A stretch of DNA of 64,000 nt, taken from positions 64,001 to 128,000 of IMG/VR virus record IMGVR_UViG_3300045988_142974; one strand, given 5' to 3'. Within the stretch, counting starts at the first letter, position 1, and the number at the start of each line of letters is the position of its first letter. Position numbers and translations under genes: made by a program. Below the pieces are notes generated by a model, which was not told the origin of the DNA, did no database searches, and saw only the letters and a program-made list of their open reading frames with translations. This document shows, in pieces, positions 40,156 to 62,407 of this stretch. Origin of the DNA: a virus.

Positions 40156-41712
40156 ATGACAATGGTAGGAAGAGACAAAGTAAAAAAAGATCAGATGATG
40201 TTAGGAACATTACTTAACCAGTTTAAAAGAGGTCAGATTAATAAGAATCATCCTTTGCAGAGAAAGCCTGATCAATGGACAGATGAGGCAAAGTCAGGGC
40301 TTGCTGCCACTATAATTAAAGGTGAAGATATTGATTCTATTAAGATATGCGAACAGATTGTAAGCTCAACAGAGTTTATTCTTTGGCTTATTGATGGATT
40401 GCAGAGATTAACTGTTCTTGAATCATTTAAGAATAATGCTTTTGAAATTAAGAAGAGTCTTGAAATGCCAATTATGTACTATCAGGGAGTTGATGAGAAT
40501 GGAAAAGTTGGAGTTATCAAATATGATCTTAGAGGTAAAAAGTACAAAGATTTACCAGATGAATTAAAGGAAAAATTCGATAGTTATGCTGTTGATATAG
40601 TTAAACATCTTGATTGTACGGATGAGGAGATTGCTTACCATATTGCAAGATATAACAGACAGACAAGCATGAATGTAAATCAGAAAAATATTTTAGCTGC
40701 TTGGAAGATAGCACCTGAAATTAAGAATCTTACAAATAATCGTTTTTTTAAAGATTGCGGAAATTACAATCCGAAAGAAGACACAAAGGAAGTTTTCAAT
40801 AGAGTTGTATGTGAGTCTATTATGACAATGTTTCATCTTGATAATTGGAAAAAAGCAAAACAGATGAGTATATATCTTAATGACAATGCTACTAAAGAAG
40901 AATTTGATACATTTGAGAGCGAACTTAATAGGTTATATAAAATAATTGACCAGGATACAGTAGGGCAGTTATTTAATGCGAAAAATTCATTCATATGGTT
41001 TGCAGCTTTTCACAAATTCACTGAGTTTGGAATTGAAGACATAAGATTTACTGATTTTCTTGAAGAATTTCAGAGAACATTACATAGTAAGACTTTTGCA
41101 GAATATGAAAACGAAAGTTTTGATACTTATGATGGTAATAAGGGAACTAAGGATAAGAAGGTTGTTAATGCTAAGTTAGATATGATTGAACAGCTTATGA
41201 AGGAATATTTACATATAACAGATGCAACAGAAGATAAGAACGAAACTATATGCAATAAGGAAGAATCTCATTCTGAAACGGACGAAGAATCTTCTGAGGT
41301 AGAAAATAAAAATGAAAATGTTTTAATTAAAACAGAGAATAATAAAGTGGCAAATGAAGATATGTTGGAACAGAATACAGGTAGTCCTGATGTATTAGAT
41401 TTTGTTAAAACAACTGTCGGTGATGATATAGAGATAGAAGATATCGAAGAGTATCAAGAGTTTGTTGATGCTTATGTTCGAATTGATTCTACTTTATATC
41501 AGAATTGTACAGCAGCACTTATTGCATTAACCGCATACGCTTATCGCTTAGACAAAGATGAAGAATTTGCGGAATGGTTGGAGAGATATCAAAGAAACAA
41601 AAGGGAATTTGCCCCTTCGCAAATTGTTAATTACAAATATATGAAGAGAGATTTGGATAATTTCTTAAAATTTACAGAAAACAAGAAGAATGAGAACGTA
41701 AATAATGCTTGA
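40156..41712 (+). CDS. DUF262 (ParB/Srx-fold, GmrSD N-terminal-like) domain protein with acidic C-terminal region; no DUF1524/HNH nuclease motif seen
   Basis: NHPLQRKPDQWTDEAKSGLAATIIKGEDI ... ILWLIDGLQRLTVL is the DUF262 (Q/H)R ... DGxQR signature. TTAGGAGGAAG SD. Confidence 0.75.
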   Translation: MTMVGRDKVKKDQMMLGTLLNQFKRGQINKNHPLQRKPDQWTDEAKSGLAATIIKGEDIDSIKICEQIVSSTEFILWLIDGLQRLTVLESFKNNAFEIKKSLEMPIMYYQGVDENGKVGVIKYDLRGKKYKDLPDELKEKFDSYAVDIVKHLDCTDEEIAYHIARYNRQTSMNVNQKNILAAWKIAPEIKNLTNNRFFKDCGNYNPKEDTKEVFNRVVCESIMTMFHLDNWKKAKQMSIYLNDNATKEEFDTFESELNRLYKIIDQDTVGQLFNAKNSFIWFAAFHKFTEFGIEDIRFTDFLEEFQRTLHSKTFAEYENESFDTYDGNKGTKDKKVVNAKLDMIEQLMKEYLHITDATEDKNETICNKEESHSETDEESSEVENKNENVLIKTENNKVANEDMLEQNTGSPDVLDFVKTTVGDDIEIEDIEEYQEFVDAYVRIDSTLYQNCTAALIALTAYAYRLDKDEEFAEWLERYQRNKREFAPSQIVNYKYMKRDLDNFLKFTENKKNENVNNA

Positions 41713-42944: not shown

Positions 42945-42961
42945 GAAAACTTCGTTTCATT

Positions 42962-43020
42962 GTAAAAAATTTCTGAGCGATTCAGCTCAATAAAATTCCC
43001 AAATTAAAAAGAGAATATAG
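42962..43020 (+). repeat. About 60-nt intergenic element (copy A) ending in the AGAGAATA box; related copies at 56108-56170 and, more weakly, at 60466-60521 and 55757-55790
   Basis: Shared blocks AAAAATTTCT, GCGATTCAGC(C/T), CCAAAT(T)AAAAG, aligned by eye. Confidence 0.5.
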
Positions 43021-43076
43021 ATATGTAACCAATTAACATTCACATATAAAAATTATAGAAAAGGAGAGTAAAACAG

Positions 43077-45677
43077 ATGAATGGATTGAGTAGTAAAGAA
43101 GTTCTCAAAAGTAGAGAGCTTCATGGAAGTAATAAGCTTCCTGAACCAAAGTTGGACAAGTGGTATGACTTCGCAAAGGAGGCATTAAGTGAGAAAATCA
43201 CAATGATTCTTATTGCAATTGCAGTATTGCAGTTATTCCTTGGAATCATGGGAGTAATGGATTTATCAGATCCAATTATGATTCTTGTTGTATTAGCAAT
43301 TGTAACATGTATTGCTGTTAAGACTGGACTTGGTGTTCAAAAATCAGCAGCAGAGTTGAGAGCCAAAACATCAGTCAGGTATTGTGACGTAATTCGTGAT
43401 GGCAAAGTTCAAACAATTAATAAGGATGAATTGGTAGTTGGTGATATTGTTTGTGTAGGAATGGGACAAGAGATTTTTGCAGATGGATATCTCATTGAAG
43501 GTAAGATTTCTGTAAACAATGCAGCCATTAATGGAGAAACAAAAGAGTGCAAGAAAACACCAATTGAAGGATATGTTCATAAGAAAACTACTTCAACAGC
43601 TGCTTATACGAATCAGAATTGCTTATTTGCTGGCACAACAGTAATGTCAGGCGAAGGAAAAATGATTGTTACTGATGTAGGTGTGAATACAGTAAATGGT
43701 GATACACTTGTTAAAATGCAAACACTTGAAGCACCAAAGACAGCACTTGATATTGCACTTGATAATCTGAGCGACTTCATTTCTAAGTGGGGAACAATCG
43801 CAGCCGTTATTACATTTGCGGTGCTTACAATTTCAGGAGTTGTACAGGTTGGATTTGGAGAATATTTTAGCGGTGGCGTTCTGAATATTATTCAGAAAAT
43901 CGCACAGAACTTCTCAGTAGCATTAACAATTATTGTAGCTGCTGTTCCCGAAGGATTGCCTCTTATTGTAAAACTTGTAACAAAACAGAATGTAAAGACA
44001 ATGGAGAAATTCAATATTCTTGCTAAGAATCCTGGTAAAATTCCAGAGTTAGCATATGTTGATATTATCTGTACTGATAAGACAGGTACTCTTACGACAG
44101 GTATTATGACTCCAAAGAAGATTATTGATGGCTTTGGTAATGATGTAAATAAGGATTCAGTTCTTTGGAATAATATCAAGGCAAACATTTCTTTAAATAA
44201 TAGTGCAACATTTGATTCAGAAAACAATATTACAGGTGGTAATTCAATTGATAGAGCAGTTCTTAGCCTTGTAAATCCTGAAACATATGCTGACATTCAG
44301 AAAAAATATCCAGTTAAGTTAAAGCAGGTATTTAATAGTAGCAATAAGTATTCAGCTTTTACGACAAAGGATGGAGTTACATACTATAAGGGCGCACCTG
44401 AGAAACTGATTGAGCATTGTACAAAAGTAATGGACTCAAGTGGTGAAATTGTAGAGAATAACGACAATGACACATTAAGTAATGCAATTACAGCAATGAC
44501 AAGCAATGCGATGAGATGCATTGCAGTTACAATGGCAGATGGTGATTTAGTAGAGAATGAAATACCAAATGACATGACATTCCTTGGAATTATTGGTGTT
44601 GTAGATCCTGTAAGAGATGAAGTACCGAGTGCAGTAAAAACAGCACATAAGGCTGGTATTCAAGTTATTGAAATTACAGGCGATTGTATTGAGACAGCAG
44701 TTGCAGTTGCTACAGAGTGTGGAATTTACAAAGATGGAGATTTAGCACTTACAAATGATGAATTTGAAGCGATGTCAGCTGATGAAGTAAAGAGTATAAT
44801 TCCTCGATTGAGAGTTATTTCAAGATGCTCACCAAACACAAAACTCAGACTTGTCACATTAGCACAAGAAATTGGAAAGTCAGTTGCAATGACAGGTGAT
44901 GGTGTAAATGATAGTCCTGCTTTAAAGAGAGCTGATGTTGGTTTTGGTATGCAAGGTGGATCAGATGTTGCAAAAGAAGCTTCAGACATTGTATTGACAG
45001 ATGATAATTTTGCAAGCGTAGTAAAGGCAGTAGAACTTGGAAGAACATTTATGCACAATATTATGATGTTCCTTGAATTCCAGTTACCTATCAATATTTC
45101 ACTTCTAATTCTCAGCGTTATCTATCCAATGATTGCAACGGGCGCATTACTCGCATCGGTTCAGATTCTGATTGTAAATATCATTATGGATTCCCTTAAT
45201 TCACTATCATTCGGTGGCGAACCTCCAAAGGATGAATACATGACAGAGAAACCTATTAAAAAGGGTTCTGGTTTATTCATCAGAGGAGCAAAGAAACGTA
45301 TTGCAATAAGTACAGTAGCTTTTATTGCACTTTATGGAATTATTACATTCAGTCCTATTGCAAATATGTTTGCATCTGAAACAGAAGCTATGACAGCGAG
45401 ATTCGCATTGTTATGCTTTATGGCAGTATTTAATGGATTTAATATTCGTACAGAACACATTAATTTATTCAATGGTATTGGGAAGAACAAACTGTTCTCA
45501 GCCATTGCAATCGGAATTTTTGTAATGACTTTTGCTCTTTGCAACTTTGCAGAAAATCTTATTAAGGTTACAGCTTTAGATTTCAAACATTGGGTAGTAG
45601 TTGTAATTCTAGCGTTTATGGTTATTCCAATTGATCTTATTAGAAAGATTATTGAGAAGAAAAGAGAGAATAAGTAA
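43077..45677 (+). CDS. P-type (P2-like) cation-transporting ATPase, probable Ca2+ pump (866 aa)
   Basis: ICTDKTGTLT (phosphorylation motif DKTGT), AAVPEGLPLIV (the PEGLP TM4 motif typical of Ca2+/P2 pumps), TGD, MTGDGVNDSPALKRADVG (GDGxND hinge), and multiple TM segments. Confidence 0.9.
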   Translation: MNGLSSKEVLKSRELHGSNKLPEPKLDKWYDFAKEALSEKITMILIAIAVLQLFLGIMGVMDLSDPIMILVVLAIVTCIAVKTGLGVQKSAAELRAKTSVRYCDVIRDGKVQTINKDELVVGDIVCVGMGQEIFADGYLIEGKISVNNAAINGETKECKKTPIEGYVHKKTTSTAAYTNQNCLFAGTTVMSGEGKMIVTDVGVNTVNGDTLVKMQTLEAPKTALDIALDNLSDFISKWGTIAAVITFAVLTISGVVQVGFGEYFSGGVLNIIQKIAQNFSVALTIIVAAVPEGLPLIVKLVTKQNVKTMEKFNILAKNPGKIPELAYVDIICTDKTGTLTTGIMTPKKIIDGFGNDVNKDSVLWNNIKANISLNNSATFDSENNITGGNSIDRAVLSLVNPETYADIQKKYPVKLKQVFNSSNKYSAFTTKDGVTYYKGAPEKLIEHCTKVMDSSGEIVENNDNDTLSNAITAMTSNAMRCIAVTMADGDLVENEIPNDMTFLGIIGVVDPVRDEVPSAVKTAHKAGIQVIEITGDCIETAVAVATECGIYKDGDLALTNDEFEAMSADEVKSIIPRLRVISRCSPNTKLRLVTLAQEIGKSVAMTGDGVNDSPALKRADVGFGMQGGSDVAKEASDIVLTDDNFASVVKAVELGRTFMHNIMMFLEFQLPINISLLILSVIYPMIATGALLASVQILIVNIIMDSLNSLSFGGEPPKDEYMTEKPIKKGSGLFIRGAKKRIAISTVAFIALYGIITFSPIANMFASETEAMTARFALLCFMAVFNGFNIRTEHINLFNGIGKNKLFSAIAIGIFVMTFALCNFAENLIKVTALDFKHWVVVVILAFMVIPIDLIRKIIEKKRENK

Positions 45678-45693
45678 TTGAGGAGATGAGAAC

Positions 45694-45903
45694 ATGGTAA
45701 TGAGAGATAAAAGTTATAAAACAGTAGAGATTATTACTCTTATATGTTTTTCAATTAGTGTTATTACAGTATGTATTACACGCTTTATTCCATTTATTTT
45801 TCTGACATTACTCACATTCCCAATTTCTTTTAAATTATTAAAAGGGAAGGTTGACAGCCTTCCCAAGAATAAGGAGGACAAAAAAATATGTCAATTAGTT
45901 TAG
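45694..45903 (+). CDS. small two-TM membrane protein (69 aa)
   Basis: ORF track. GAGGAG SD. Overlaps the first terD start by 16 nt. Confidence 0.55.
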   Translation: MVMRDKSYKTVEIITLICFSISVITVCITRFIPFIFLTLLTFPISFKLLKGKVDSLPKNKEDKKICQLV

Positions 45904-46466
45904 TTAAAGGTCAGAAGATTGACCTTACAAAATGCAATGCAGGTTTAAACAAAGTCGTATTTGGTCTTGGATGGGACACAAATAGATACGATGGTAATGC
46001 AGATTTCGATTTGGATGTATCAGCATTTTTTACTGATGATTCAGGAAAGGTAACAGGCGAACAGGATTTTGTATTTTATGGTCAGCCACAGCATCCAAGC
46101 GGAGCATTGATTTATTCTGGCGATAATAGAACAGGTGTAGGTGATGGCGATGACGAGACAATGATTGTTGAGTTAAATAAGATTCCATCTAATATTACAA
46201 AGATTAGCTTCTCAGCGACAATTTATGATGCAGAAAATCGTTTACAGAATTTTGGAATGGTTGATAATTCGTACATTAGAGCATACAACGCTGATACAAA
46301 TGAGGAACTTTTCAAATATGAACTTAATGAGGATTTCTCATTAGAGACAGGTGTTATTGCAGGTGAGTTGTATCGTAAGAACGGTGAATGGAAGTTTAAT
46401 GCAGTTGGTTCAGGTTACAATGGTGGTTTAGCTGCTATTGGTAGAAATTTTGGTCTTGATTTATAA
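45888..46466 (+). CDS. terD: TerD-family stress protein (paralogue 1)
   Basis: SLVKGQKIDLTK ... GLGWD ... DFDLDVSAF ... GDNRTGVGDGDDETMIVELNKIP ... ATIYDA ... NGEWKFNAVGSGY are canonical TerD motifs, including the acidic Ca2+-site loop. Confidence 0.9.
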   Translation: MSISLVKGQKIDLTKCNAGLNKVVFGLGWDTNRYDGNADFDLDVSAFFTDDSGKVTGEQDFVFYGQPQHPSGALIYSGDNRTGVGDGDDETMIVELNKIPSNITKISFSATIYDAENRLQNFGMVDNSYIRAYNADTNEELFKYELNEDFSLETGVIAGELYRKNGEWKFNAVGSGYNGGLAAIGRNFGLDL

Positions 46467-46484
46467 AATGGAAGGAGAATATAT

Positions 46485-47060
46485 ATGTCAGTAAATTTAG
46501 TAAAAGGACAGAAAATTAATTTATCTAAGGAAGTAGCAGGTGGTCTTACAAAGATTATGGTAGGACTTGGATGGGATGCTGTTAAGAAAGGATTCTTTGG
46601 TTCTAAGCCAAACATTGATTGCGATGCTTCGGCAATTATTTTAGGAAAAGATGATAAGTATCGTACATGTGTTTATTATGGTGACAGATCAGCAGAAGAC
46701 AGATGTGTGTATCATCATGGCGACAACCTCACAGGAGATGGAGACGGTGATGATGAGCAGATTACAGTTGACCTTGCGAATATTACAAATAAGGTTGAGA
46801 AGATTGTATTTGTAGTAAATATCTATGATTGTATTTCAAGAAAGCAGGATTTTGGACTTATCAAGAATGCGTACATTAGACTTGTTGATGAGTCAACTGG
46901 TAAGGAAATTTGTAAATATAATCTTTCAGATGATTATGCTGGCAAGACAGCAATGGTATTTGCAGAGGTTTATAAGAAAGACGGAGAGTGGAAATTTAAC
47001 GCCATCGGTCAGGGAACAAATGATTCAAGTGTTAGCGAATTAACAAGAAGATACAAGTAG
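46485..47060 (+). CDS. terD: TerD-family stress protein (paralogue 2)
   Basis: NLVKGQKINLSK ... GLGWDA ... IDCDASAI ... GDNLTGDGDGDDEQITVDL ... DGEWKFNAIGQG. Confidence 0.9.
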   Translation: MSVNLVKGQKINLSKEVAGGLTKIMVGLGWDAVKKGFFGSKPNIDCDASAIILGKDDKYRTCVYYGDRSAEDRCVYHHGDNLTGDGDGDDEQITVDLANITNKVEKIVFVVNIYDCISRKQDFGLIKNAYIRLVDESTGKEICKYNLSDDYAGKTAMVFAEVYKKDGEWKFNAIGQGTNDSSVSELTRRYK

Positions 47061-47072
47061 GAGGATTTAATT

Positions 47073-47654
47073 ATGTCAGTTTCGTTAAGTAAAGGACAGA
47101 GAGTAGATTTAACAAAGGGTAGACCGTCATTAAAAAACATTCTTGTTGGACTTGGATGGGATATTAATCATTATGACGGAGAAGCAGATTTTGATCTCGA
47201 TGCCTCTGTGTTTATGACAAAAGAGAATGGTAAGGTTGGCAATGACGAGGATTTCATTTTCTATGGTAATCTTGAACATAGTTCAAAGAGTGTAAAGCAT
47301 ATGGGAGATAACCGTACAGGTGAGGGAGATGGAGATGATGAGGTTATTAAGATTAAACTTGATAAAATCCCATCAGACTATGAGACTCTTGCTGTGACGG
47401 TCACAATTTATGATGCTGAGAGTAGACTTCAGAACTTCGGTATGGTTGGAAATGCATATGTGCGTGTAGTAGACGAAGAGACAGGCGAGGAACTTATTCG
47501 TTTTGATTTAAGTGAAGACTTCTCTACCGAGACTGCGTTAGTCGTAGCTGAAATATATAAACATAATGGCGAATGGAAGTTTAAGGCTGTAGGAAGTGGC
47601 TATAACGGTGGATTAAAGGCATTATGTAATCAGTATGGAATTGATGCAGAGTAG
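47073..47654 (+). CDS. terD: TerD-family stress protein (paralogue 3)
   Basis: SLSKGQRVDLTK ... GLGWD ... DFDLDASVF ... GDNRTGEGDGDDEVIKIKLDKIP ... NGEWKFKAVGSGY. Confidence 0.9.
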   Translation: MSVSLSKGQRVDLTKGRPSLKNILVGLGWDINHYDGEADFDLDASVFMTKENGKVGNDEDFIFYGNLEHSSKSVKHMGDNRTGEGDGDDEVIKIKLDKIPSDYETLAVTVTIYDAESRLQNFGMVGNAYVRVVDEETGEELIRFDLSEDFSTETALVVAEIYKHNGEWKFKAVGSGYNGGLKALCNQYGIDAE

Positions 47655-47663
47655 GAGGATTGT

Positions 47664-48413
47664 ATGACAAATTTTATGTTTATTATAATTGTGGTAATTG
47701 TATTAATTGCACTGATTCTTTTCTTTACTCCTTTTGGTAAACAGCTTAGAGTAAAGTTTAAAGGAAGAACAGATGAAGTAATGCGCCAGGATGCACAAAC
47801 ACCAGAAGGTGCTAGAGATTATTACAATGTAGCCATTAGAGAAAAGGAAGAATTTTATAACAAGGCTTCTGCTACATATGCAGAGATTTCAGGAAAGCGT
47901 GACACAGCAGAGAAAGATTTATACCAGGCGAACAAAGATATTATGCGTGTTACACAGCAGATTAACGCTTGTCTTGATGAGAACAAAGAAGATGAAGCAA
48001 TGCAGTATGCAATGAAGAAGTCTACTTTGGAGAATAAGATTAATGTGCTAAAAGATACAATCGAAGAGATGAAAGAAGCACAGGCTCATCAGAAAGACAT
48101 TCGTGATCAGGCAGCCGAAGAATTGCAGAAACTTAAAGAGGAAAAGGAACAGGTTCTTTTTCAGATGGAAGCTGATAGTCAGATTATCGAACTTCATCAG
48201 AGTATGGACAGTCTCAATACCAACAATGAGAGTGATAGAATGCTTGAAAGAGTTCGTGAAGGAGCAAGAAAGACAAGAGAACGTGCAGAAGGAAGTAGAA
48301 TTGCATATGATTCTAGCGCACAGGCTAATGAGAGAAGACTTGCTAATTCTGAAAGAGAGCGCAATGCTCGTCAGATTCTTGATGATATGAAGAGACAGAG
48401 AGGTAATAAGTAA
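47664..48413 (+). CDS. membrane-anchored coiled-coil protein, tentatively PspA/IM30-like (249 aa)
   Basis: N-terminal TM helix FMFIIIVVIVLIALILFF, then long heptad-like helices with a PspA-like pattern (NKEDEAMQYAMKKSTLENKINVLKDTIEEMK ...). The family call is tentative. Confidence 0.6.
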   Translation: MTNFMFIIIVVIVLIALILFFTPFGKQLRVKFKGRTDEVMRQDAQTPEGARDYYNVAIREKEEFYNKASATYAEISGKRDTAEKDLYQANKDIMRVTQQINACLDENKEDEAMQYAMKKSTLENKINVLKDTIEEMKEAQAHQKDIRDQAAEELQKLKEEKEQVLFQMEADSQIIELHQSMDSLNTNNESDRMLERVREGARKTRERAEGSRIAYDSSAQANERRLANSERERNARQILDDMKRQRGNK

Positions 48414-48505
48414 TGATTGTATTAAACATTGGAGTTTTCTTAATCTGTCTTGGTGTATGCTTTGGAGCAGGTTTTATCGTGGGAAAACGTAAGAAGAATA
48501 AATAA
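48413..48505 (+). CDS. small hydrophobic peptide (30 aa)
   Basis: Own translation MIVLNIGVFLICLGVCFGAGFIVGKRKKNK. TAATG overlap with the upstream gene. Confidence 0.4.
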   Translation: MIVLNIGVFLICLGVCFGAGFIVGKRKKNK

Positions 48506-48641
48506 TTTAAGGGTTGGTAGGTGTTACAGCCTACTAGCTCTATCAAAGGGTAATAAAATAGACCTTTTAATTTATAAAACGGAGAATATAACATTAGAAA
48601 CAATTAACAAAAATCAATATAAGAAAGAAGAGGTACAAAAT

Positions 48642-50705
48642 ATGGACGGATTTATGATGTTTAAAAAGGCTTTGCAGAAGCACTTCGATGAAATGCAGAA
48701 AGAGGCTACACATTTATTTGAGGTAAATGTAGATAAGGATGAATTATGGAATACATATCTTGATAGCTTTCCTGCCGGTACAAATGAGATTTTCAGAGAG
48801 CGTAGAGAACATGATTGCAGTTGTTGTAGACAGTTTATCAAGAATATTGGTTCTGCTGTCACCATTAAGGATAATCAGATTCACACAATCTGGGAACTGA
48901 ATCTTGGTGATACAACATATCAGCCAGTATGCGATGCACTTGACGCTTTTGTAAAGGCTCATATAGTTACAGATATTTATACAACTAAGTTCCCTAAGAT
49001 TGGTACAGATTTTAATTTTGAGGAAATCAATGGAAAGTCTCATAAGTGGGATCATTTCTTCTTAGAGCTTCCAAGTAAGTTTGTAAATAGAAGTAGCCGT
49101 TCCAACGAGGAAGTTAAAGGACAGTTCAGAGATACAAGAAATGTATTTAAGCGTTCTCTTGATGAGATTACTATGGATGCACTCGATACAATTCTTGAAC
49201 TTATCAACTCAAATACACTTTACAAGGGTGAAGAATGGAAGGGAGTACTCACAGAATTTAAGAAGTATAAGAAGGAATACGATAAGCTGGCTTCTGATAC
49301 TGAAAAGGATTTATATGCTTGGGAGAAGTCGGTAACGGCAGGTATGGCTATCGGTAGAATTAGAAATCATTCTATTGGAACACTTCTTATCAATGTAAGT
49401 GAGGATATGGATCTTGACACAGCAGTTAAGAAGTATGAGCAGATTGTCGCTCCAAGTAATTATAAAAGACCAAAGGCTATTTTTACAAAGAAAATGCTTG
49501 AGGATGCAAAGAAGACCATTACAGAACTCGGTTATATGGATTCATTACAGAGAAGATTTGCTAATCTGAATGATATTACTGTAAATAATGTACTGTTCTC
49601 AAATAAGAGTGCTGCAAGAAGAATGGTAGGTGCAGATGATATTTTTGGTCAGATGGAAAAGGATGTTGCTGTAAGTCCTAAGAAGTTTTCTAAGGTTGAA
49701 GAGATTTCAGCACAGGATTTCATTGATAAGGTACTTCCAACTGCAAAGGAGATTGAAGCTTTTGTAGAGAATAAACATGAGAAGAACTTTGTTTCTATGA
49801 TTGCACCTGTAAATCCAGATGCTAAGACAATGTTTAAATGGAACAATGGATTATCTTGGGCTTATTCAGGAAACATCACCGACTCTGATATGAAGCAGAA
49901 TGTAAAAGCTGCTGGCGGTAATGTTGACGGTGTTCTTAGATTTTCAATCATGTGGAATGAAGGACAGAATGATAACAGCGATCTTGATGCGCATTGTAAA
50001 GAACCTGATGGTAACGAGATTTATTTCAGTAATTGTAGAAAACCAGAAACTTCAAGATGTGGAGGTCAGTTAGATATTGATATTACACGCCCTATGACGC
50101 AGATGGCAGGAAAACCTTCTGTGGAAAATATTACATGGGCAGATATGTCACGTATGAAGCCAGGTGTTTATAAGTTTTTTGTTAATCAGTTTGCAGCGAG
50201 AGGAAGTAAAGGATTTAAGGCAGAAATTGAATTCAATGGTGAGATTTTTGCGTTTGAATACAATAGTCCTGTTTCTGGTAATGTTCAGGTGGCAGAAGTT
50301 ACACTTGACGAGAATGGCAACTTCTCAATTAAGGAAAAGCTGTCTGGAAGTTCATCTATTTCAAGTCGTGAAATTTGGGGTGTAAATACAAATCAGTTTG
50401 TTCCTGTATCAGTAATTAGTTACAGTCCAAACTATTTTGACGAGCAGGATGGAATTGGTCATAGACATTTATTTTTCTTCCTGAAGGATTGTGTAAATAG
50501 CGAAGAGCCTAATGGATTCTATCTTGAGTTCCTTGATAATGATTTAATGAAGCATAAGAGAGTGTTCGAGGCTTTAGGTGCTAAGTGTCATGTAGAAGAT
50601 ACTGATGATCAGCTTTCAGGAATTGGTTTTTCGATGACAAAGAGAGCAGATTTAGTTGTTAAGGTTAAGGGCGCAATAGAGCGTGTAATGAAGATTAAGT
50701 TTTAA
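48642..50705 (+). CDS. large conserved-looking hypothetical protein (687 aa) in the Ter operon
   Basis: Internal ATG of track ORF 48450..50705, after an AGAAGAGG SD. The C-terminal beta-rich region LRFSIMWNEGQNDNSDLDAHCKEPDGNEIYF...GGQLDIDITRP...ENITW...GVYKFFVNQF is reminiscent (from unverified recollection) of DUF2135/YfaP-type domains. Confidence 0.7.
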   Translation: MDGFMMFKKALQKHFDEMQKEATHLFEVNVDKDELWNTYLDSFPAGTNEIFRERREHDCSCCRQFIKNIGSAVTIKDNQIHTIWELNLGDTTYQPVCDALDAFVKAHIVTDIYTTKFPKIGTDFNFEEINGKSHKWDHFFLELPSKFVNRSSRSNEEVKGQFRDTRNVFKRSLDEITMDALDTILELINSNTLYKGEEWKGVLTEFKKYKKEYDKLASDTEKDLYAWEKSVTAGMAIGRIRNHSIGTLLINVSEDMDLDTAVKKYEQIVAPSNYKRPKAIFTKKMLEDAKKTITELGYMDSLQRRFANLNDITVNNVLFSNKSAARRMVGADDIFGQMEKDVAVSPKKFSKVEEISAQDFIDKVLPTAKEIEAFVENKHEKNFVSMIAPVNPDAKTMFKWNNGLSWAYSGNITDSDMKQNVKAAGGNVDGVLRFSIMWNEGQNDNSDLDAHCKEPDGNEIYFSNCRKPETSRCGGQLDIDITRPMTQMAGKPSVENITWADMSRMKPGVYKFFVNQFAARGSKGFKAEIEFNGEIFAFEYNSPVSGNVQVAEVTLDENGNFSIKEKLSGSSSISSREIWGVNTNQFVPVSVISYSPNYFDEQDGIGHRHLFFFLKDCVNSEEPNGFYLEFLDNDLMKHKRVFEALGAKCHVEDTDDQLSGIGFSMTKRADLVVKVKGAIERVMKIKF

Positions 50706-50726
50706 TTAGAAAAGGAGATTATTATT

Positions 50727-51116
50727 ATGACAAACAACGAATTATTTATCAATGCAACAAGAGCAAACTATCAGTTCCCATTCAGAGGAATGATTAACGT
50801 AATTGATTTGTGGGATTTATCTCTCACAAATCTGGACTCAGTGTTTAAGACACTCAATGCAGAAGTAAAGAAGTCTGAGGAAGAAAGTCTTCTAAATACC
50901 AAGTCAAAGGAAGATGAGGAGATTTCTAACAAGATTGAAATTGTTAAGTATATTGTTGACGTGAAGCTGGATGAGAAGAAGAAGAGAGAAGACGCTAAGA
51001 AAAATGCTGAGATGAGACAGAGATTGCTTGAAATCAAAGCTAAGAGACAGGATGCAGCACTTGAGAATATGTCTGATGAGGATCTGGATAAGGCACTTGC
51101 AGAATTAAGTGAGTAA
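50727..51116 (+). CDS. hypothetical charged coiled-coil protein (129 aa)
   Basis: ORF track. GAAAAGGAG SD. Confidence 0.6.
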   Translation: MTNNELFINATRANYQFPFRGMINVIDLWDLSLTNLDSVFKTLNAEVKKSEEESLLNTKSKEDEEISNKIEIVKYIVDVKLDEKKKREDAKKNAEMRQRLLEIKAKRQDAALENMSDEDLDKALAELSE

Positions 51117-51125
51117 TTGTTATAA

Positions 51126-51177
51126 ATATACCATATATAGTATTAAAAATAAACGATATATACTATATATGGTATAT
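51126..51177 (+). terminator. 18-bp perfect AT-rich inverted repeat (ATATACCATATATAGTAT ... ATACTATATATGGTATAT), terminator/operator after the Ter operon
   Basis: Read and paired base by base. 16-nt loop. T-rich tail. Confidence 0.6.
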
Positions 51178-51290
51178 ATTTTACATTAGAATGAATCGCA
51201 CATTTCTTTATGAAATAGATAATTTAATACATATATTAGAAAAATTCAAAAAAGAATGTCCTGAGCATATTGGAGAATGGAGATAACATT

Positions 51291-51839
51291 ATGACGAATA
51301 AAGAGCAAAATAATTTAAGCAAATACATAGCATTAATTCTTAGACACAGACCTGATGTTATTGGTATCGCATTAGATGAACATGGTTGGGCTAACGTGTC
51401 AGATCTATTAAAAGGAATCAATAAAACTCAGACGATTACAATGAAAATGCTTGAAAAAATTGTAGAAGAAGATTCTAAACAGAGATATTCATTTAATCGA
51501 GAGAAGACGCTTATAAGAGCAAATCAAGGTCATTCTATAAAAGTTGATGTAGAATTGAAAGAGTGTATGCCACCAGATATTTTATATCATGGAACGGGTG
51601 TCAAATATTGCTCTTCAATCAATAAACAAGGGTTAATATCCAAGAGTCGTTTATATGTCCATCTATCAAAAGATATTGAAACAGCAACAAATGTTGGCAG
51701 TAGACATGGAGAACCGTTTATTTATAAGGTTCGAGCAAAAGATATGTATAATGATGGATATAAATTCTTTTTATCTCAAAATGGGGTATGGCTTACAAAA
51801 GAAGTACCAATCTGTTATTTAGATGCGTTCTCGAAATAA
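51291..51839 (+). CDS. kptA: RNA 2'-phosphotransferase Tpt1/KptA family (NAD+-dependent)
   Basis: Track ORF 51270..51839. ATG 51291. [48 protein letters not shown] and RLYVHLS match the Tpt1 R-H-R-R catalytic-tetrad context. Confidence 0.85.
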
Positions 51840-51910
51840 GGACAACAAGGACATTCCAAACTTCAAGGAACGAGTTGAAACAGATATATAAAATTTTGGA
51901 GGTTAAGACA

Positions 51911-52939
51911 ATGACAATTGAACAGATTAAGGACAAATTAAAATCAAAAGAGTATGACTTCCTGAGAACAGATAAGAATTTGGGTAACAATATCATTATC
52001 TTAACTCTTGGTGGAAGTTATGCATATGGAACAAATAATGAGGGTAGCGATTTAGATATTCGTGGTTGTGCTTTGAATAGCAAGATGCAGATTCTTACAA
52101 ATGAGAATTTTGAGCAGTTTGTAAACAATGAGACAGACACAACCATTTATGCCTTTAATAAGTTAGTAGCTTTGTTAAGTAATACAAACCCTAACACAAT
52201 AGAAATGCTTGGAAATAAGCCAGAACACTATTTCTATGTATCTCCTATTGGTCAGGAACTTATTGACAATGCGCATTTATTTTTATCAAAGAGAGCTTGT
52301 CATTCGTTTGGCGGTTATGCTAATCAGCAATTATACAGATTAAATCAGAAAGCTGCACATCAGATGTCGCAGTCTGAATTAGAGAAACATATTCTAAAGA
52401 CTCTTGAATTTATGCAGACTGACTTCACAAAGAAATATACACCATATGAAGATGATTCTATGAAATTATATATTGATAAAGCTGTGCAGGAAGGCTACGA
52501 TACAGAAATCTTTATGGATATAAATCTTCATCATTACCCATTAAGAGATTATTGTTCTATGTGGAATGAGCTTCAGAATACAGTTCGTCAATATGGAAAA
52601 ATTGGTAAGAGAAATGAAAAAGCAATTGAACATGGTAAAATTGCTAAACATTCAATGCATCTTATTCGACTGTATATGATGTGCTTAGATATTCTTGAAA
52701 AAGAAAGAATAATTACATACAGAGAAGATGAGCATAATTTACTAATGGATATTCGCAATGGCAAGTATTTGGATAGCAACGATCAGCCAATCCCAGAATT
52801 CTTTGAAATGGTAAATGATTATGAAAAGAGATTAGATTATGCGAAGAAAAACACAAGTCTTCCTGATAATCCTAATTATAAGGCTATCAATGAATTTGTT
52901 GCTAGTGTAAATGAAAGGGTGGTAAAAGGTGAAATCTAA
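51911..52939 (+). CDS. Pol-beta-superfamily nucleotidyltransferase, RlaP/pfam10127-like (RNA-repair-associated) (342 aa)
   Basis: Internal ATG of track ORF 51788..52939, after a TTGGAGG SD. ILTLGGSYAYGTNNEGSDLDIRG is the GS...D.D NTase motif. The family assignment is from recollection of the RlaP signature. Confidence 0.6.
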   Translation: MTIEQIKDKLKSKEYDFLRTDKNLGNNIIILTLGGSYAYGTNNEGSDLDIRGCALNSKMQILTNENFEQFVNNETDTTIYAFNKLVALLSNTNPNTIEMLGNKPEHYFYVSPIGQELIDNAHLFLSKRACHSFGGYANQQLYRLNQKAAHQMSQSELEKHILKTLEFMQTDFTKKYTPYEDDSMKLYIDKAVQEGYDTEIFMDINLHHYPLRDYCSMWNELQNTVRQYGKIGKRNEKAIEHGKIAKHSMHLIRLYMMCLDILEKERIITYREDEHNLLMDIRNGKYLDSNDQPIPEFFEMVNDYEKRLDYAKKNTSLPDNPNYKAINEFVASVNERVVKGEI

Positions 52940-54296
52940 TTTGAAGATTGAAATTCCATCTGGTGCAAATGAAATTATCCATAGTCTACAAAATAATGGA
53001 TATGAAGCTTTCTTAGTCGGAGGATGTGTAAGAGATAGTATTCTTGGCAGACCAATTCACGATTATGACATTACAACTTCTGCCACGCCAGATGAGATGA
53101 TGGAAGTATTCAAGGACAAGAGAATTATTGAAACTGGATTACAGCATGGAACTATCACAATTTTAATTGACGGTGAAGGATATGAATGTACCACTTACAG
53201 AATTGACGGTAATTACTCAGATAGTCGTAGACCTGATAGCGTAACATTTACACGAAATCTTAAAGAAGATTTAAAGCGTAGAGATTTTACAATTAATGCA
53301 ATGGCTTACAATGATGAAGTTGGTCTTATAGATCCGTTTAATGGTATGGAAGATATTAAATACCACAAGATTAGATGTGTTGGCAGAGCAGAAGACAGAT
53401 TTTCAGAAGATGCATTAAGAATTTTACGTGCCATTCGGTTTGCCTCACAGTTGGGATTTGTCCTTGAACCTGATACAGATTGGCATATTTCTAAAATGTA
53501 TAAGAATTTGGAGAATATATCTATTGAAAGGATCAATAGTGAATTTTGTAAAATTGCTGCATCGAGTGATTTCTGTGTACAAATGGTCTTATATCACGAA
53601 GTATTCTCGTTGTTCATTCCTGAAATTAAAGATATGTTTGGTTTTCAACAGAATAATCCATATCACATGTATGATGTATGGAATCATACCGTACATGCAA
53701 TAGAATATTGTGAATCCGATGATTTAGTAACAAGATTGGCAGTATTCTTTCACGATTTTGGTAAGCCACACTGTTATCAAGATGGAGAAGATGGTATCAG
53801 ACACTTTAAAGGTCATGGAAGAGTAAGTGCTGATATGACCAATGAGATTATGAAACGTCTTAGATTTGACAATGATACAAGAGAAAAGGTCATTGAATTA
53901 GTCTATTATCATGATGCTACTTTTGAGGTGGGAAAGAAATATGTCAAGAGATGGCTTAATAAAATTGGAGAAGAACAGTTCAGAAGGTTATTAAATGTTC
54001 GTAGAGCTGATATTAAAGCACAAGCAGACATGGCTCAGGAAACAAGATTACAGAAAATTGATAACATCGAATATATTTTAGAAGAAGTCTTACAGGATGA
54101 TGAATGTTTTTCTCTAAAGGATTTAGCAGTTAATGGAAAAGATGTAATGGATACAATGCTCATTAAAAGTGGAAAAGAAGTTGGCTACTGGCTCAATGAA
54201 ATCTTAACTCGTGTAATAGATGGGAGATTAAAAAATGATAAAGAGGATCTTATTTATTGGATGACTGGTATTACAGATGGTTGGATAGAATATTAA
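52929..54296 (+). CDS. cca: CCA-adding enzyme / tRNA nucleotidyltransferase (class II) with HD domain
   Basis: FLVGGCVRDSILGRPIHDYDITT, RRDFTINAMAY, LRAIRFASQLGF, FFHDFGKPHC (HD). GTG start overlapping the upstream gene's end. Confidence 0.85.
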   Translation: MKSNLKIEIPSGANEIIHSLQNNGYEAFLVGGCVRDSILGRPIHDYDITTSATPDEMMEVFKDKRIIETGLQHGTITILIDGEGYECTTYRIDGNYSDSRRPDSVTFTRNLKEDLKRRDFTINAMAYNDEVGLIDPFNGMEDIKYHKIRCVGRAEDRFSEDALRILRAIRFASQLGFVLEPDTDWHISKMYKNLENISIERINSEFCKIAASSDFCVQMVLYHEVFSLFIPEIKDMFGFQQNNPYHMYDVWNHTVHAIEYCESDDLVTRLAVFFHDFGKPHCYQDGEDGIRHFKGHGRVSADMTNEIMKRLRFDNDTREKVIELVYYHDATFEVGKKYVKRWLNKIGEEQFRRLLNVRRADIKAQADMAQETRLQKIDNIEYILEEVLQDDECFSLKDLAVNGKDVMDTMLIKSGKEVGYWLNEILTRVIDGRLKNDKEDLIYWMTGITDGWIEY

Positions 54297-54306
54297 CGGA
54301 GGTAAT

Positions 54307-55047
54307 ATGTACGAAAAATTAAAAGAATATATAAAAGAATCAAATAATATTGTATTCTTTGGTGGAGCAGGTGTATCAACTGAAAGTGGTATTCCTGATT
54401 TTCGTTCCAAGGATGGATTATATAATCAGCATGACGTTCAGTTTGATAAATACGAACCAGAATATCTTTTGAGTAGAGAATGTTTATATAATAATCCAAA
54501 GATATTTTATGAGTTCTATCGTCAGAAGATGGATACAAGAAATGTTGAACCAAACGTTACTCATAAGGTGCTTGCTAAGATGGAAGAAATAGGTAAGTTG
54601 AAAGCTATTGTAACACAGAATATTGATGGACTTCATCAGAAAGCTGGAAGTAAGAATGTCTTTGAGATTCATGGAACTACTCAGAAGAATTATTGTAGTA
54701 AGTGTAAGATGAAATATCATTCTGATTTCTTGTTTAACACTAAAGATGCTATTCCAAAGTGTGAATGTGGTGGGCTGATTAGACCTGATGTGACTTTATA
54801 CGGAGAGAATCTTCCTAACGAAGCTGTAAATGGAGCAATCAGAGCTATTCGAGATGCTGAAATGTTGATTATTGGTGGCACTTCATTAAAAGTTTATCCA
54901 GCAGCTCATTATATTTCATATTTTAGTGGTAGACATTTGGTTGTTATCAATATGGAGAAAATTCAAGTGTTGTTGAATGAGGATACAGATCTGATGATTG
55001 TTGATTCGTTAGGTAATGTGTTCAGTGAAATTGATAAATGGATGTGA
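54307..55047 (+). CDS. Sir2-family NAD+-dependent protein deacylase/ADP-ribosyltransferase
   Basis: FFGGAGVSTESGIPDFRS, TQNIDGLH, EIHG, Zn module CSKC...CECGG, IGGTSLKVYPAA. Confidence 0.9.
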   Translation: MYEKLKEYIKESNNIVFFGGAGVSTESGIPDFRSKDGLYNQHDVQFDKYEPEYLLSRECLYNNPKIFYEFYRQKMDTRNVEPNVTHKVLAKMEEIGKLKAIVTQNIDGLHQKAGSKNVFEIHGTTQKNYCSKCKMKYHSDFLFNTKDAIPKCECGGLIRPDVTLYGENLPNEAVNGAIRAIRDAEMLIIGGTSLKVYPAAHYISYFSGRHLVVINMEKIQVLLNEDTDLMIVDSLGNVFSEIDKWM

Positions 55048-55060
55048 GGTGAGAGAATAA

Positions 55061-55267
55061 TTGGAATGGATTAAATGTGTCGAAGGACAAATGCCAGAAG
55101 ACGACAAAAGATATGACGGTAAGAAAGTAATTAATGTACTTGTTACTACAAATCGAGGTATGGTAACAAAAGTACAAAGGCAATACTATGATGGGACATG
55201 GTTTTGGGGAAGAATTACTGGCGGTATGAGAGCTTGGATGCCGTTGCCTGAACCATACAAAGAATAA
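55061..55267 (+). CDS. DUF551-like phage protein (68 aa, TTG start)
   Basis: MEWIKCVEGQMPEDD ... VLVTT ... WMPLPEPYKE is the typical DUF551 pattern. GAGGTGAG SD. Confidence 0.6.
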   Translation: MEWIKCVEGQMPEDDKRYDGKKVINVLVTTNRGMVTKVQRQYYDGTWFWGRITGGMRAWMPLPEPYKE

Positions 55268-55281
55268 GTGGGGGTTGAAGA

Positions 55282-55737
55282 GTGAAATTAAAGGATAAAA
55301 TACGAGATAAATTACGTCTTTGGCTGTTAGAAGACGATTTGTTTCAAGTGGAAACAGCTAAAAAATCATATAAGGATGCAATAGAAAAATGCAAAGATGC
55401 AGAGGATAAATATAGATACACCAATATTCAATTATCTGATGCAGCTATTACATATAAAAATTCTCATAAATTAGTTGATGATTGTCATAAAATGATGAAT
55501 TCTATGGTAGACGTTGGAACTGATGTTGGGTTTTATTCTGATGATCATTCTTGGGCAGTTGTGTGTATCAAGGGGCATCCTGAATATGTGAAGCTTATCC
55601 CATTATCACATAGAGATGCACATGAGGTACTTGAGTTTCTAAAACATTTCAAATATTCAGATAGAGTAATTGATTCCCCTTTTGCATTTAGAGATATGGT
55701 TAATAATTGTATCATGGATAAGCCATTTGAAAAGTAG
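55282..55737 (+). CDS. hypothetical protein (151 aa, GTG start)
   Basis: ORF track. Confidence 0.55.
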   Translation: MKLKDKIRDKLRLWLLEDDLFQVETAKKSYKDAIEKCKDAEDKYRYTNIQLSDAAITYKNSHKLVDDCHKMMNSMVDVGTDVGFYSDDHSWAVVCIKGHPEYVKLIPLSHRDAHEVLEFLKHFKYSDRVIDSPFAFRDMVNNCIMDKPFEK

Positions 55738-55802
55738 AGAATAATCTAATATAGAAGCAATTCTATTCACGGCTGATCAGCCAAATTAAGTGAGGTGATA
55801 AA

Positions 55803-56102
55803 GTGAAAAAATATTGGGAAACAGGTGAAAAGAATGATTTTGGTAAGGAATGTTATAAATTACATTTTAGTCAATTTTATGAAGAAGATGATGAAAATGT
55901 AGTAGCTGGTTTTGTACAAGATGAGATAGACGAAAACATATTTATATATGTATCAAAAGAACTAAATGTTGAATATGATACATTGTTTGCAGACAATATA
56001 GAAGATGCAAAGCATCAAATTGAAGACATGTTAATAGACCATTGGAATGATGAGATTGATTATTTAGAAAATCGAATTAAATCATTTCAAAACGAAGAAT
56101 AA
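55803..56102 (+). CDS. hypothetical acidic protein (99 aa, GTG start)
   Basis: ORF track. GTGAGGTGATAAA SD. Confidence 0.55.
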   Translation: MKKYWETGEKNDFGKECYKLHFSQFYEEDDENVVAGFVQDEIDENIFIYVSKELNVEYDTLFADNIEDAKHQIEDMLIDHWNDEIDYLENRIKSFQNEE

Positions 56103-56175
56103 TCATGTATAAAAATTTCTATCTTGGCGATTCAGCCAAATTTTCCAAATAAAAGTAACAAGAAATATTTTTTCC

Positions 56176-56215
56176 TATGGTTTTAGCAGACGTGCAAATT
56201 CCATAGGATTTTACA
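56176..56215 (+). terminator. Hairpin TCCTATGG ... CCATAGGA + TTTTA
   Basis: Read directly. Lies within the Dcm leader region. The antisense track ORF 56119..56328 was rejected. Confidence 0.45.
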
Positions 56216-56295
56216 ACAAAATAATTAAGAAGAAAGGAATTAAGCAGTAACTCCTGGGTAATTATGGTTACGTAACCTCTGTAAAATAGTGTATT

Positions 56296-57219: not shown

Positions 57220-57272
57220 CATAATATGAAGTTCGCAGGAAAGCGGAATTTCTTGTGATGAAAGGAGAAAAT

Positions 57273-57995
57273 ATGTATCCAGAATACGATGATTTTTATG
57301 AGCCAAGTGAGGGCGAAATGTTTTTTGATGAAATGAAAGAAAAGTTCAGAGAGATTTTACGTGAAGATGTAAATTCTGAAATCAGTAGATTAACAAAAGA
57401 AAATGCAGAATTAGGACAAAAGGTTAAAGAGTATAATGATAAAAATTTAAATCTTTCTTGTAGAGAAAGAGATTTGCAGTACAAGATTGACAATTACAAG
57501 CGAGAGGTAGAGAAAGACTTTTACAATAAAACAATGGAAGAAGTTTTTGAGAAACTTTTAGAAGACTCAGAAGTGTGGTATGCAGAACGTGTTCCTCATG
57601 AGAAACCAAAATGTAATTTATGTAATGAGGAAAGAAAACTTATTGCAGTATATCCAAATGGTGAAACTGTAACCAAGGAGTGTGAATGTTCTCGACCAGC
57701 ATATATTTATGAGCCAGTAATTTCATTGAATAAAGAGATTAAATTTCATAAGGCGTATAAGCCAAGATATAGTGATAAAAAGAAAGTCTATTTTACTAAA
57801 AATTACAAACCAAACAAGGATTATGCAGATGCATACGATTATTACAGTGAATTCAGAATAGAAAATATTTTTGATGATTTTAATGATGATGTAATTCTAT
57901 ATCACAATGGAAAAAGCTATGGAGAAAAAATTGCATTCAGAAGTAAAGATGCTTGTCAGAAATATTGTGATTGGCTTAATAAGGAGAATAAGTAA
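57273..57995 (+). CDS. hypothetical protein with coiled coil and Cys cluster (240 aa)
   Basis: Track ORF 57255..57995. ATG 57273 follows the AAAGGAGAAAAT SD. Confidence 0.6.
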   Translation: MYPEYDDFYEPSEGEMFFDEMKEKFREILREDVNSEISRLTKENAELGQKVKEYNDKNLNLSCRERDLQYKIDNYKREVEKDFYNKTMEEVFEKLLEDSEVWYAERVPHEKPKCNLCNEERKLIAVYPNGETVTKECECSRPAYIYEPVISLNKEIKFHKAYKPRYSDKKKVYFTKNYKPNKDYADAYDYYSEFRIENIFDDFNDDVILYHNGKSYGEKIAFRSKDACQKYCDWLNKENK

Positions 57996-62334: not shown

Positions 62335-62407
62335 TTAAGAGAATAAGAACAATGAAAGGAGACGAGGTTCGTGTACACAAGAAGGAATTCCTTACTCCAA
62401 GTAATTT

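Follow-up and report, generated by a model that had tools for sequence, protein, structure and literature searches.

We analyzed 64,000 nucleotides of viral DNA (positions 64,001 to 128,000 of IMG/VR virus record IMGVR_UViG_3300045988_142974; this whole stretch is the window below), in which genes for a P-type ATPase, three TerD paralogues, a membrane-anchored PspA-like protein and a 30-amino-acid peptide (pep30) follow one another on the plus strand. At roughly even odds, we read this set, which we call Unit 1 (43003-48541), as an abbreviated, phage-borne Ter-type module that may guard the membrane through a Ca2+-linked cycle. A preliminary description had listed nine open reading frames (ORFs), all of which are present on the plus strand where it had placed them, and had joined them into one tightly spaced operon. 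This holds for the ATPase, the three TerDs, the PspA-like protein and pep30, but not for the last two genes, encoding proteins of 687 and 129 amino acids, as a hairpin and a second copy of a promoter-like motif intervene. The region 43003-51177 is two units, not a single operon. The wider claim of a module for Ca2+ handling and membrane stress is reasonable for the core, but the operon limits and the membership of two of its nine genes had been assigned wrongly, and the module is better framed as a compact variant of known phage Ter systems. The features of Unit 1 are given below (TM, transmembrane).

43003-43037, plus strand: promoter-like motif (A-run, GAGAATATA, 11 nucleotides, CAATTAA), 66 nucleotides 5' of the ATPase ATG
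43077-45677, plus strand: predicted P2-type (PMCA/LMCA1-like) Ca2+-ATPase, 866 amino acids, with Pfam and NCBIfam matches
45694-45903, plus strand: hydrophobic ORF of 69 amino acids, a doubtful gene, found in the closest clade only
45888-46466, plus strand: TerD paralogue 1, 192 amino acids, PF02342 at 251 bits, loop GDNRTGVGDGDDE
46485-47060, plus strand: TerD paralogue 2, 191 amino acids, PF02342 at 228 bits, loop GDNLTGDGDGDDE
47073-47654, plus strand: TerD paralogue 3, 193 amino acids, PF02342 at 280 bits
47664-48413, plus strand: TM-anchored protein like PspA/Vipp1 (ESCRT-III superfamily), 249 amino acids, by profile and fold
48413-48505, plus strand: pep30, a single-TM micropeptide of 30 amino acids (MIVLNIGVF...KRKKNK) with a basic tail, its start overlapping the PspA-like stop
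48510-48541, plus strand: conserved stem-loop closing Unit 1, with a 13-bp stem, terminator-like, without a U-tract

Conservation of the core

Evidence that these genes belong together comes from their relatives. With the ATPase as query, IMG/VR yielded 162 relatives, and 80 loci were examined, mostly on contigs of 90 to 250 kb; four were cut by contig ends, leaving 76 untruncated. The order ATPase, TerD(s), PspA-like protein, with pep30 following, is kept in 75 of the 76 and rearranged in one. Forty-nine loci have the ATPase, three TerDs and the PspA-like protein, and 26, which form a sister clade, have the ATPase, a TerF-like protein with a von Willebrand factor A (vWA) domain (PF10138, 202 bits, metal ion-dependent adhesion site intact), one TerD and the PspA-like protein. 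Across the conserved loci the ATPase is 71 to 99% identical and the PspA-like protein as little as 32%, with unrelated flanks, and the core was also seen in six GTDB contigs and eight metagenome contigs. The neighborhood comparison that the preliminary description had proposed thus shows the ATPase/TerD/PspA-like core to be strongly conserved, and the core is a real, non-random grouping.

Juxtaposition of unrelated accessory genes in a recombination hot spot would be another account of such a grouping, and the surroundings are indeed mosaic: an upstream protein of 518 amino acids (40156-41712) is only 25 to 49% identical among phages whose modules are 99% identical. Against chance stand a core order that has survived deep divergence in 75 of 76 loci, genes that overlap or are tightly spaced, and a pairing of three TerDs with a P-type ATPase that recurs with a pump only 34% identical. 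This explanation is contradicted for the core, where its probability is close to negligible, and is correct for the two-gene cassette that follows Unit 1.

The layout points the same way. Between 43077 and 48505 the gaps between genes measure 9 to 18 nucleotides or are overlaps, and the plus strand holds one weak terminator-like call, located within the TerD2 coding sequence. Directly 3' of the pep30 gene, the stem-loop at 48510-48541 is kept in relatives, with three pairs altered on both sides in compensatory fashion. At the other end, a search of the whole window for GAGAATATA-N6-14-CAATT found GAGAATATA-N10-12-CAATT at 43011, 48582 and 63607, three copies against 0.03 expected. The copy 5' of the ATPase is retained in three relatives (L030, L048 and L057), while other clades have different promoter-like sequences there, among them a perfect TTGACA-17-TATAAT in L065. 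Promoter function for the motif at 43003-43037 is a prediction, and the copies may represent a phage-specific promoter class. The shared promoter-like element of the preliminary description survives only in this form, and the stretch 42945-43076 gave no call for a sigma-70 consensus site. Two other candidates were rejected: a 31-nucleotide element at 42970-43000 is unique within the window, and the looser motif AAAGAGAATATAG is only mildly enriched, with mostly intragenic copies. The third copy of the motif, with a 12-nucleotide spacer (63607-63632), is intergenic and close to the window end.

One member of the proposed operon did not withstand comparison. The 69-amino-acid ORF, taken earlier for a two-TM protein, is confined to the closest clade, carries a frameshift in 2 of 24 distinct relatives (L027 and L063), has a variable C terminus, and is missing wherever TerD1 starts about 20 nucleotides or less after the ATPase. 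Its substitutions by codon position (67/107/36) are not coding-like. We regard it as doubtful and leave it out of the count of established genes.

The ATPase

The ATPase matches the Pfam families E1-E2_ATPase, Cation_ATPase_N/C and Hydrolase and has the core motifs P291-E292-GLP, D334-KTGT, KGAPE at 438 and GDGVND at 607, which include the three motifs first noticed. It passes the NCBIfam model for PMCA-type Ca2+ pumps, TIGR01517, as a borderline case (512.3 bits; cutoff 507.05), and falls far under the cutoffs of the PMR1, SERCA, H+, Mg2+ and K+ models. Its closest PDB relatives are ACA8 of Arabidopsis (8qmp), SPCA1, Listeria LMCA1 (6zhf) and PMCA1. Segments M4 (AAVPEGLPL), M5 (FLEFQLPIN) and M6 (VNIIMDSL) align with Ca2+ site II of solved pumps, and E292, N701 and D705 match site II of PMCA and ACA8, with VN701IIMD705 facing VNLIMD of ACA8 in M6 and FLEFQL facing FIQFQL in M5. 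A match of the ion-site residues to a non-Ca2+ subclass would have spoken against a Ca2+ pump; the residues are of the Ca2+ type. Specificity for Ca2+ and the direction of transport are nonetheless predictions from sequence.

The A-domain departs from the TGES dephosphorylation motif and reads NGET at residues 152 to 155 (43530-43541). As NGE[TS] is common to 30 of 30 relatives, including chromosomal copies, down to 34% identity, NGET is a subfamily trait rather than a sign of decay in the phage. The pump is also related to those of hosts. The closest cellular ATPases, at 70 to 71% identity, lie on Ruminococcus/Oscillospiraceae metagenome-assembled genome contigs without TerD, and one chromosomal relative has housekeeping neighbors (DnaB_2/DnaI, IlvA, LeuA and phosphoglycerate mutase). 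In a neighbor-joining tree, the chromosomal Ruminococcus/Oscillospiraceae ATPases nest among the phage copies.

TerD paralogues

All three TerDs score far above the PF02342 gathering score of 25.3 bits, and the TerD profile matches Klebsiella TerD (2KXT) at 1e-79. As listed in PMC8779313 (after Pan et al. 2011), the Ca2+ ligands of KP-TerD are residues 40-42, 78, 79 and 89 for Ca1 and 29, 82, 84 and 88 for Ca2. Their equivalents, within one residue, show little or no variation in our TerD alignment, where W29, D30, D41, D43, G78, D79, T82, G83, G85, D88, D89 and E90 are conserved. The three TerDs are therefore canonical, with the acidic loops of the preliminary description intact, and are predicted to bind Ca2+. 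TerD1 is 98 to 99% conserved within the close clade. The exact TerD3 protein was found in 560 blocks of a public collection, on contigs of up to 622 kb, and a single 90%-identity cluster of the PspA-like protein holds 800 member sequences, numbers that mark a very common human-gut phage family.

PspA-like protein and pep30

Members of the PspA/Vipp1 family stabilize damaged membranes. The assignment of the 249-residue protein to this superfamily draws on three kinds of comparison. A profile built from 18 relatives matches Vipp1 (8qbv and 6zvr) in register at E values of 4e-4 to 7e-4, with query residues 56-196 aligned to residues 30-175 of the Vipp1 chain. An AlphaFold2 model shows a helical hairpin (47-105/109-170) with a predicted local distance difference test (pLDDT) score above 90, and the top three Foldseek matches are Vipp1 6zvr, 8qbs and E. 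coli PspA 4whe, the Vipp1/PspA matches having TM-scores of 0.57 to 0.73 on the target. PF04012 is among the precomputed annotations of most close relatives, and one relative, MT835556.1 (L111), scores 42.4 bits. At the N terminus, residues 1-30 make up a hydrophobic TM segment, and a basic linker comes next. At superfamily level, then, the PspA-like assignment by profile and model holds, as does the preliminary description of a TM-anchored, PspA/IM30-like coiled coil.

The small hydrophobic peptide that had been noted downstream is also a conserved gene. In 15 of 20 representative loci pep30 starts between -3 and +2 nucleotides from the PspA-like stop, and it is kept even in clades where PspA-like identity is down at 32%. 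Together the two proteins recall the Psp/Lia systems (PspA-PspBC and LiaH-LiaI) and Vipp1/ESCRT-III in the helical-hairpin fold and in the small membrane partner encoded alongside. They differ from Psp/Lia in having a TM helix instead of alpha0, a 30-residue partner unrelated to PspB, PspC or LiaI, no PspF-type regulator, and linkage to TerD and a putative Ca2+ pump.

A second conserved cluster with a TM-anchored PspA-like protein occurs in Bacillus phage G (gp243-gp250, L110, where the PspA-like protein is gp247) and in MT835556.1, its partners being an ABC permease, an ABC ATPase, a helical protein of 191 to 204 amino acids and OmpA/NMT1 fusion proteins. Comparison led us to reject a TerD-like identity for phage G gp246, the 191-residue protein 5' of gp247. 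The 245-residue TerD-adjacent membrane proteins of phages YungSlug and LysYB1 are not homologues of the PspA-like protein. The 856-residue "ATPase domain protein" of the same two phages was dropped as a P-type candidate, as tblastn yielded no Bacillus phage.

Relation to Ter systems and to other phage modules

Ter systems have been described by Iyer et al. as a scheme of signal biosynthesis, ligand binding by TerB and TerD, TM transport by TerC, and sub-membrane structures of TelA and TerF with vWA domains (PMC7824862). In B. subtilis, three TerDs (yceCDE) are paired with the TerC metal exporter MeeF, which exports Mn (PMC10550928). The module resembles these systems (enterobacterial terZABCDEF, and yceCDE-meeF with yceG and yceH, which encodes TelA) in its tandem TerDs beside a membrane exporter and a helical sub-membrane protein, in being phage-borne as some Ter systems are, and in the vWA-TerF-like variant of its sister clade. 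It differs in that the exporter is a P-type ATPase and the helical protein a TM-anchored PspA/Vipp1-like one. As the preliminary description had noted for TerC, TelA and the biosynthetic module, usual partners are missing: TerC, TelA and TerB were not found among the 39 window proteins scanned, nor were the biosynthetic genes (PRTase [phosphoribosyltransferase], StiP, C-C lyase and YceG), and TerC was not found in the related loci either.

The link between pump and TerDs extends beyond the close relatives. Two fecal contigs have three TerDs with a P-type ATPase 29 to 34% identical to ours and with the same E/N/D site residues. In L005 a Ca-type ATPase, 34% identical, adjoins three TerDs. In L006 (MT836648.1, 1-9300) PRTase_2/TRSP, StiP/PELOTA, C-C lyase, YceG, TelA, three TerDs and the ATPase lie together; this virome scaffold is an unverified record, possibly of bacterial origin. 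By its gene content L006 is a complete Ter cluster, with a predicted Ca-type pump after the TerD triplet, at the position of TerC (MeeF). The adjacency in L005 and L006 means that the link is recurrent and is also found inside a full Ter system.

Phages have been associated with both halves of the module. Abbreviated Ter operons occur in jumbo phages, where the proposed role is exclusion of superinfecting phages (PMC7824862). The huge Jug phages of the gut have Ca2+ P-type ATPases related to host pumps, and the same paper reports four smaller phages, of 159 to 197 kb, with Bacillota-like pumps (PMC12880540). Jug phages also have three terD genes, one of which adjoins a pspA-like gene, in separately transcribed regions (PMC12880540). 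The two settings are alike in the Ca2+-type pump, the TerD triplet and the PspA-like gene next to terD, and the relatives of our module fall in the size class of the smaller phages. In Jug phages, however, the pump is in its own operon with an upstream protein of 77 to 91 amino acids, the terD regions are separate operons, and the hosts are Bacteroides and Phocaeicola, whereas here a single tight unit is found in phages of Clostridia. The preliminary description had supposed the combination uncharacterized. Our literature search found no description of the fused ATPase-TerD triplet-PspA-like arrangement, so that part stands, but its components and phage Ter operons have been published (PMC12880540, PMC7824862).

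A proposed cycle and its alternatives

In the cycle that we favor at about 50%, the host-related P2-type ATPase would export cytoplasmic Ca2+, and the three cytosolic TerDs would bind Ca2+ through their acidic loops as sensors or buffers, a role that one TerD and the vWA-TerF-like protein would take in the sister clade. The TM-anchored PspA-like protein and translationally coupled pep30 would form a sub-membrane scaffold. A membrane lesion, whether made by a superinfecting phage, a bacteriocin, an abortive-infection pore of the host or membrane proteins of the phage itself, would admit Ca2+; Ca2+-loaded TerD would then engage a polymer of the PspA-like protein there, after which the pump would reset cytosolic Ca2+. 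Set beside B. subtilis yceCDE-meeF, the pump would occupy the role of the TerC exporter and the PspA-like protein that of TelA. The module would be transcribed from its own promoter-like element, within an accessory and counter-defense island of a temperate phage. The contact between TerD and the PspA-like protein, the trigger, and the beneficiary are the steps that we infer. Ter systems occur widely, in pathogens, plasmids and phages alike. A module of five to six genes would offer a minimal system in which to study how Ca2+, TerD and the membrane are connected.

Several observations weigh against this cycle. For the pump, the margin over the TIGR01517 cutoff is only 5 bits, SPCA-type (Ca2+/Mn2+) PDB entries score similarly, and Mn2+ is a possible substrate, TerC proteins being Mn exporters. 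The single TerD of the vWA clade has a disrupted acidic loop, GDNKTGDDSQGMIFNGKHYDE, and Ca2+ binding by TerD is therefore not universal in the module. The PspA-like protein itself scores 25.4 bits against PF04012, under the gathering score of 33.9, and lacks the amphipathic helix alpha0 of PspA and Vipp1; its Foldseek E values are weak (0.02 to 0.04), as is usual for coiled coils. Its relatives in Bacillus phage G and MT835556 adjoin an ABC transporter and are without TerD, so the PspA-like protein may simply accompany phage membrane transporters. PADLOC gave no defense model for the pump, the TerDs or DUF8224 (the family of the 687-residue protein), and matched the PspA-like protein to PbeC only marginally, as a coiled coil (19 bits, E = 1e-4).

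Some of these points would also fit a plain set for ion homeostasis, in which the pump is the sole effector, lowering Ca2+ or exporting Mn2+, the TerDs are metal buffers or chaperones, and the PspA-like protein and pep30 relieve the stress of an overproduced membrane protein, with no sensing of lesions and no exclusion. The authors of the Jug phage study propose that the pump manipulates host Ca2+ (PMC12880540), SPCA-type pumps score near the PMCA type, the TerC proteins paired with TerD triplets are Mn exporters (PMC10550928), and the ABC transporter beside the PspA-like relatives fits as well. Yet the arrangement of the genes follows the logic of Ter systems, as does the exchange of TerDs for a vWA-TerF-like protein, a Ca-type ATPase is embedded in the full Ter cluster of L006, and the retention of the PspA-like protein and pep30 in every clade, despite large sequence change, speaks for a specific role. 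We consider ion homeostasis by itself somewhat unlikely.

The surroundings suggest another possibility, that the module acts only in lytic growth as a counter-defense, sealing the membrane and holding Ca2+ down when abortive-infection effectors of the host make pores in it. It would then work in parallel with the nearby genes for RNA repair, NAD salvage, methylation and PARG, which would answer other defenses. Tpt1, RlaP, a CCA enzyme, Sir2, methylases and PARG lie in the downstream island, relatives add NAD-salvage genes and Thg1, and the core is conserved whereas the flanks vary. This is guilt by association only, however, and the published hypothesis for phage Ter operons is exclusion of rival phages (PMC7824862). 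The hallmarks of a temperate life (integrase, ParB, the E. ramulus prophage and contigs to 622 kb) make expression in the lysogen equally possible, and we judge a purely lytic role unlikely.

Eukaryotic cells repair the plasma membrane by a Ca2+-triggered ESCRT-III pathway with a Ca2+ sensor, an ESCRT-III polymer and a Ca2+ extrusion pump. By analogy, the module has a candidate Ca2+ sensor, a putative polymer of the ESCRT-III superfamily and a predicted Ca2+ pump; it differs in that the sensors (TerD versus ALG-2) are non-homologous and in having no Vps4-like ATPase. That the module is a phage or bacterial counterpart of this pathway, with TerD as the sensor that recruits or activates the PspA-like polymer and the pump ending the signal, is a speculative and decidedly doubtful extension of the proposed cycle. 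If true, it would give TerD a concrete biochemical role and would explain Ter-linked resistance to phages, colicins and tellurite as membrane sealing.

The DUF8224 cassette

The second unit, Unit 2 (48582-51177), consists of a motif copy of its own, the two genes that the preliminary description had counted as a 687-residue unknown and a 129-residue charged protein, and a palindrome.

48582-48605, plus strand: second copy of the promoter-like motif (GAGAATATA, 11 nucleotides, CAATTAA), 60 nucleotides 5' of the 687-amino-acid gene
48642-50705, plus strand: DUF8224 protein (PF26675, phrog_1735) of 687 amino acids, phrog_1735 at 883 bits over the full length
50727-51116, plus strand: charged DUF8224 partner (phrog_2018) of 129 amino acids, by family match
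51126-51177, no strand assigned: perfect, AT-rich palindrome of 18 bp (51126-51143/51160-51177; dG -21.5, z -4.4)

Both genes and the perfect hairpin exist as first described. Membership of the two genes in the module does not stand, given their own motif, their indel behavior and their wide occurrence alone in unrelated phages. In relatives without the pair, a homologous palindrome comes directly after the pep30 hairpin, so the pair and its motif are a clean indel cassette. The 687-residue gene is within 10 kb of the module in 16 of 75 related loci and absent from the other 59; over all loci it is downstream of the ATPase in 12 and upstream in 5. Homologues of DUF8224 occur in 558 phage records, and over 550 unrelated large phages have the cassette by itself. 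The pair is found without TerD or pump in Bacillus Tsarbombavirus (gp213/gp214) and Ackermannviridae FEC14 (gp126/gp125), and further carriers of this kind are Ralstonia RSL1, Caulobacter phages and an E. ramulus prophage on a 1.5-Mb contig. The homologue of the 129-residue protein is always right after that of the 687-residue protein (Emiliahah gp214, FEC14 gp125 and the E. ramulus prophage). By this distribution the pair is evidently a separate, independently mobile cassette outside the putative Ca2+ module, and setting it apart keeps a wrong functional annotation from spreading.

Could all nine ORFs still form one operon, with the 687-, 129- and 69-residue products as working parts of a Ca2+ or membrane system? 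The genes are co-directional, the DUF8224 pair adjoins the module on one side or the other in 17 loci, and the best Foldseek matches for a beta-sandwich in the 687-residue protein are the TerD-family structures 2qng (E = 1.5e-4) and 2qz7 (1e-3). Those matches, however, come from an AlphaFold2 model that is poor overall (pLDDT 51), with a better helical block at 165-285 and the sandwich at about 430-570. Comparison of the family with TerD by hhalign was not significant (E = 0.09), and a repeat-bearing DUF8224 relative gives weak PPC/P-domain/DUF2135 signals that offer an alternative, so a TerD-like fold for the sandwich is only a tentative reading. Together with the absence of the pair from most related loci, its presence alone in unrelated phages, its own motif and clean indel boundaries beyond a conserved hairpin, and the weakness of the 69-residue ORF, this makes a nine-gene operon very improbable.

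Profile and model searches of the unknowns, also proposed in the preliminary description, gave a family (DUF8224) and a partial sandwich. The family call is a precomputed annotation on all homologues, as our local Pfam copy lacked the PF26675 model; the 687-residue protein had no match in PDB or that Pfam copy by sequence or profile, and the 129-residue protein no informative match in PDB or NCBIfam.

Two representatives, P0395 and P0359, show the DUF8224 sandwich in other settings: as five tandem copies in a protein of 1280 residues that also gives signals of zinc-ribbon, C-type lectin and P-domain, and fused to a CHAP peptidoglycan hydrolase domain. These associations hint at binding to carbohydrate or cell wall. 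Residues 441-560 of the 687-residue protein (49962-50321) are hypervariable, at 32 to 72% identity against 95 to 100% for the rest, in six relatives (L013, L016, L019, L023, L028 and L032), and coincide with the predicted sandwich. Such variation suggests that this part serves recognition or specificity and is shaped by recombination or diversifying selection.

The carrier and its other genes

The carrier is a temperate phage of gut Clostridia, and a very common one. Relatives of the element comprise IMG/VR contigs of 90 to 250 kb as well as prophages integrated in genomes of Lachnospiraceae and Ruminococcus, in keeping with the phage-like element supposed at first, and the window has ParB, RelA/SpoT, integrase and Bro/ANT genes, temperate hallmarks among them. 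Megablast of the whole region against phage and plasmid collections gave zero matches.

A culturable carrier may be available as an experimental system. The cultured isolate Ruminococcus sp. AM36-2AA (L101; QTYB01000001.1, 328220-350868, on a 499-kb scaffold) has DUF8224, its partner, the ATPase, TerD and the PspA-like protein. Its ATPase is 67% identical to ours and its one TerD 39% identical to TerD1, and the gap of about 890 nucleotides between them would fit the vWA-TerF slot of the sister clade.

Downstream of the cassette, an island (51270-59270 and 61459-63142) encodes Tpt1, RlaP, a CCA-adding enzyme/HD protein, Sir2, a microbial PARG plus macro protein, and three methylases (C5, N6/N4 and Dam-like). 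Relatives add PemK, GmrSD, Band_7 and Thg1, as well as isochorismatase, NAMPT/NAPRTase, an NMNAT-like protein and NAD synthase for NAD salvage. By its gene content this island appears accessory and counter-defense-like. The Band_7 gene (SPFH/flotillin-like), a further membrane-scaffold gene close to the module, is 2 to 3 kb 5' of the ATPase in some relatives (L114, 1945-2814; L119, 3262-4131). On the upstream side, the 518-residue protein matches the PADLOC candidate-defense model NsnA (E = 1.4e-16). The first 8000 nucleotides of the window form a minus-strand block of lower G+C content (28%) with ParB (3240-4400) and a RelA/SpoT-domain protein (6305-7423), and strand and GC skew change over at about 6 to 8 kb.

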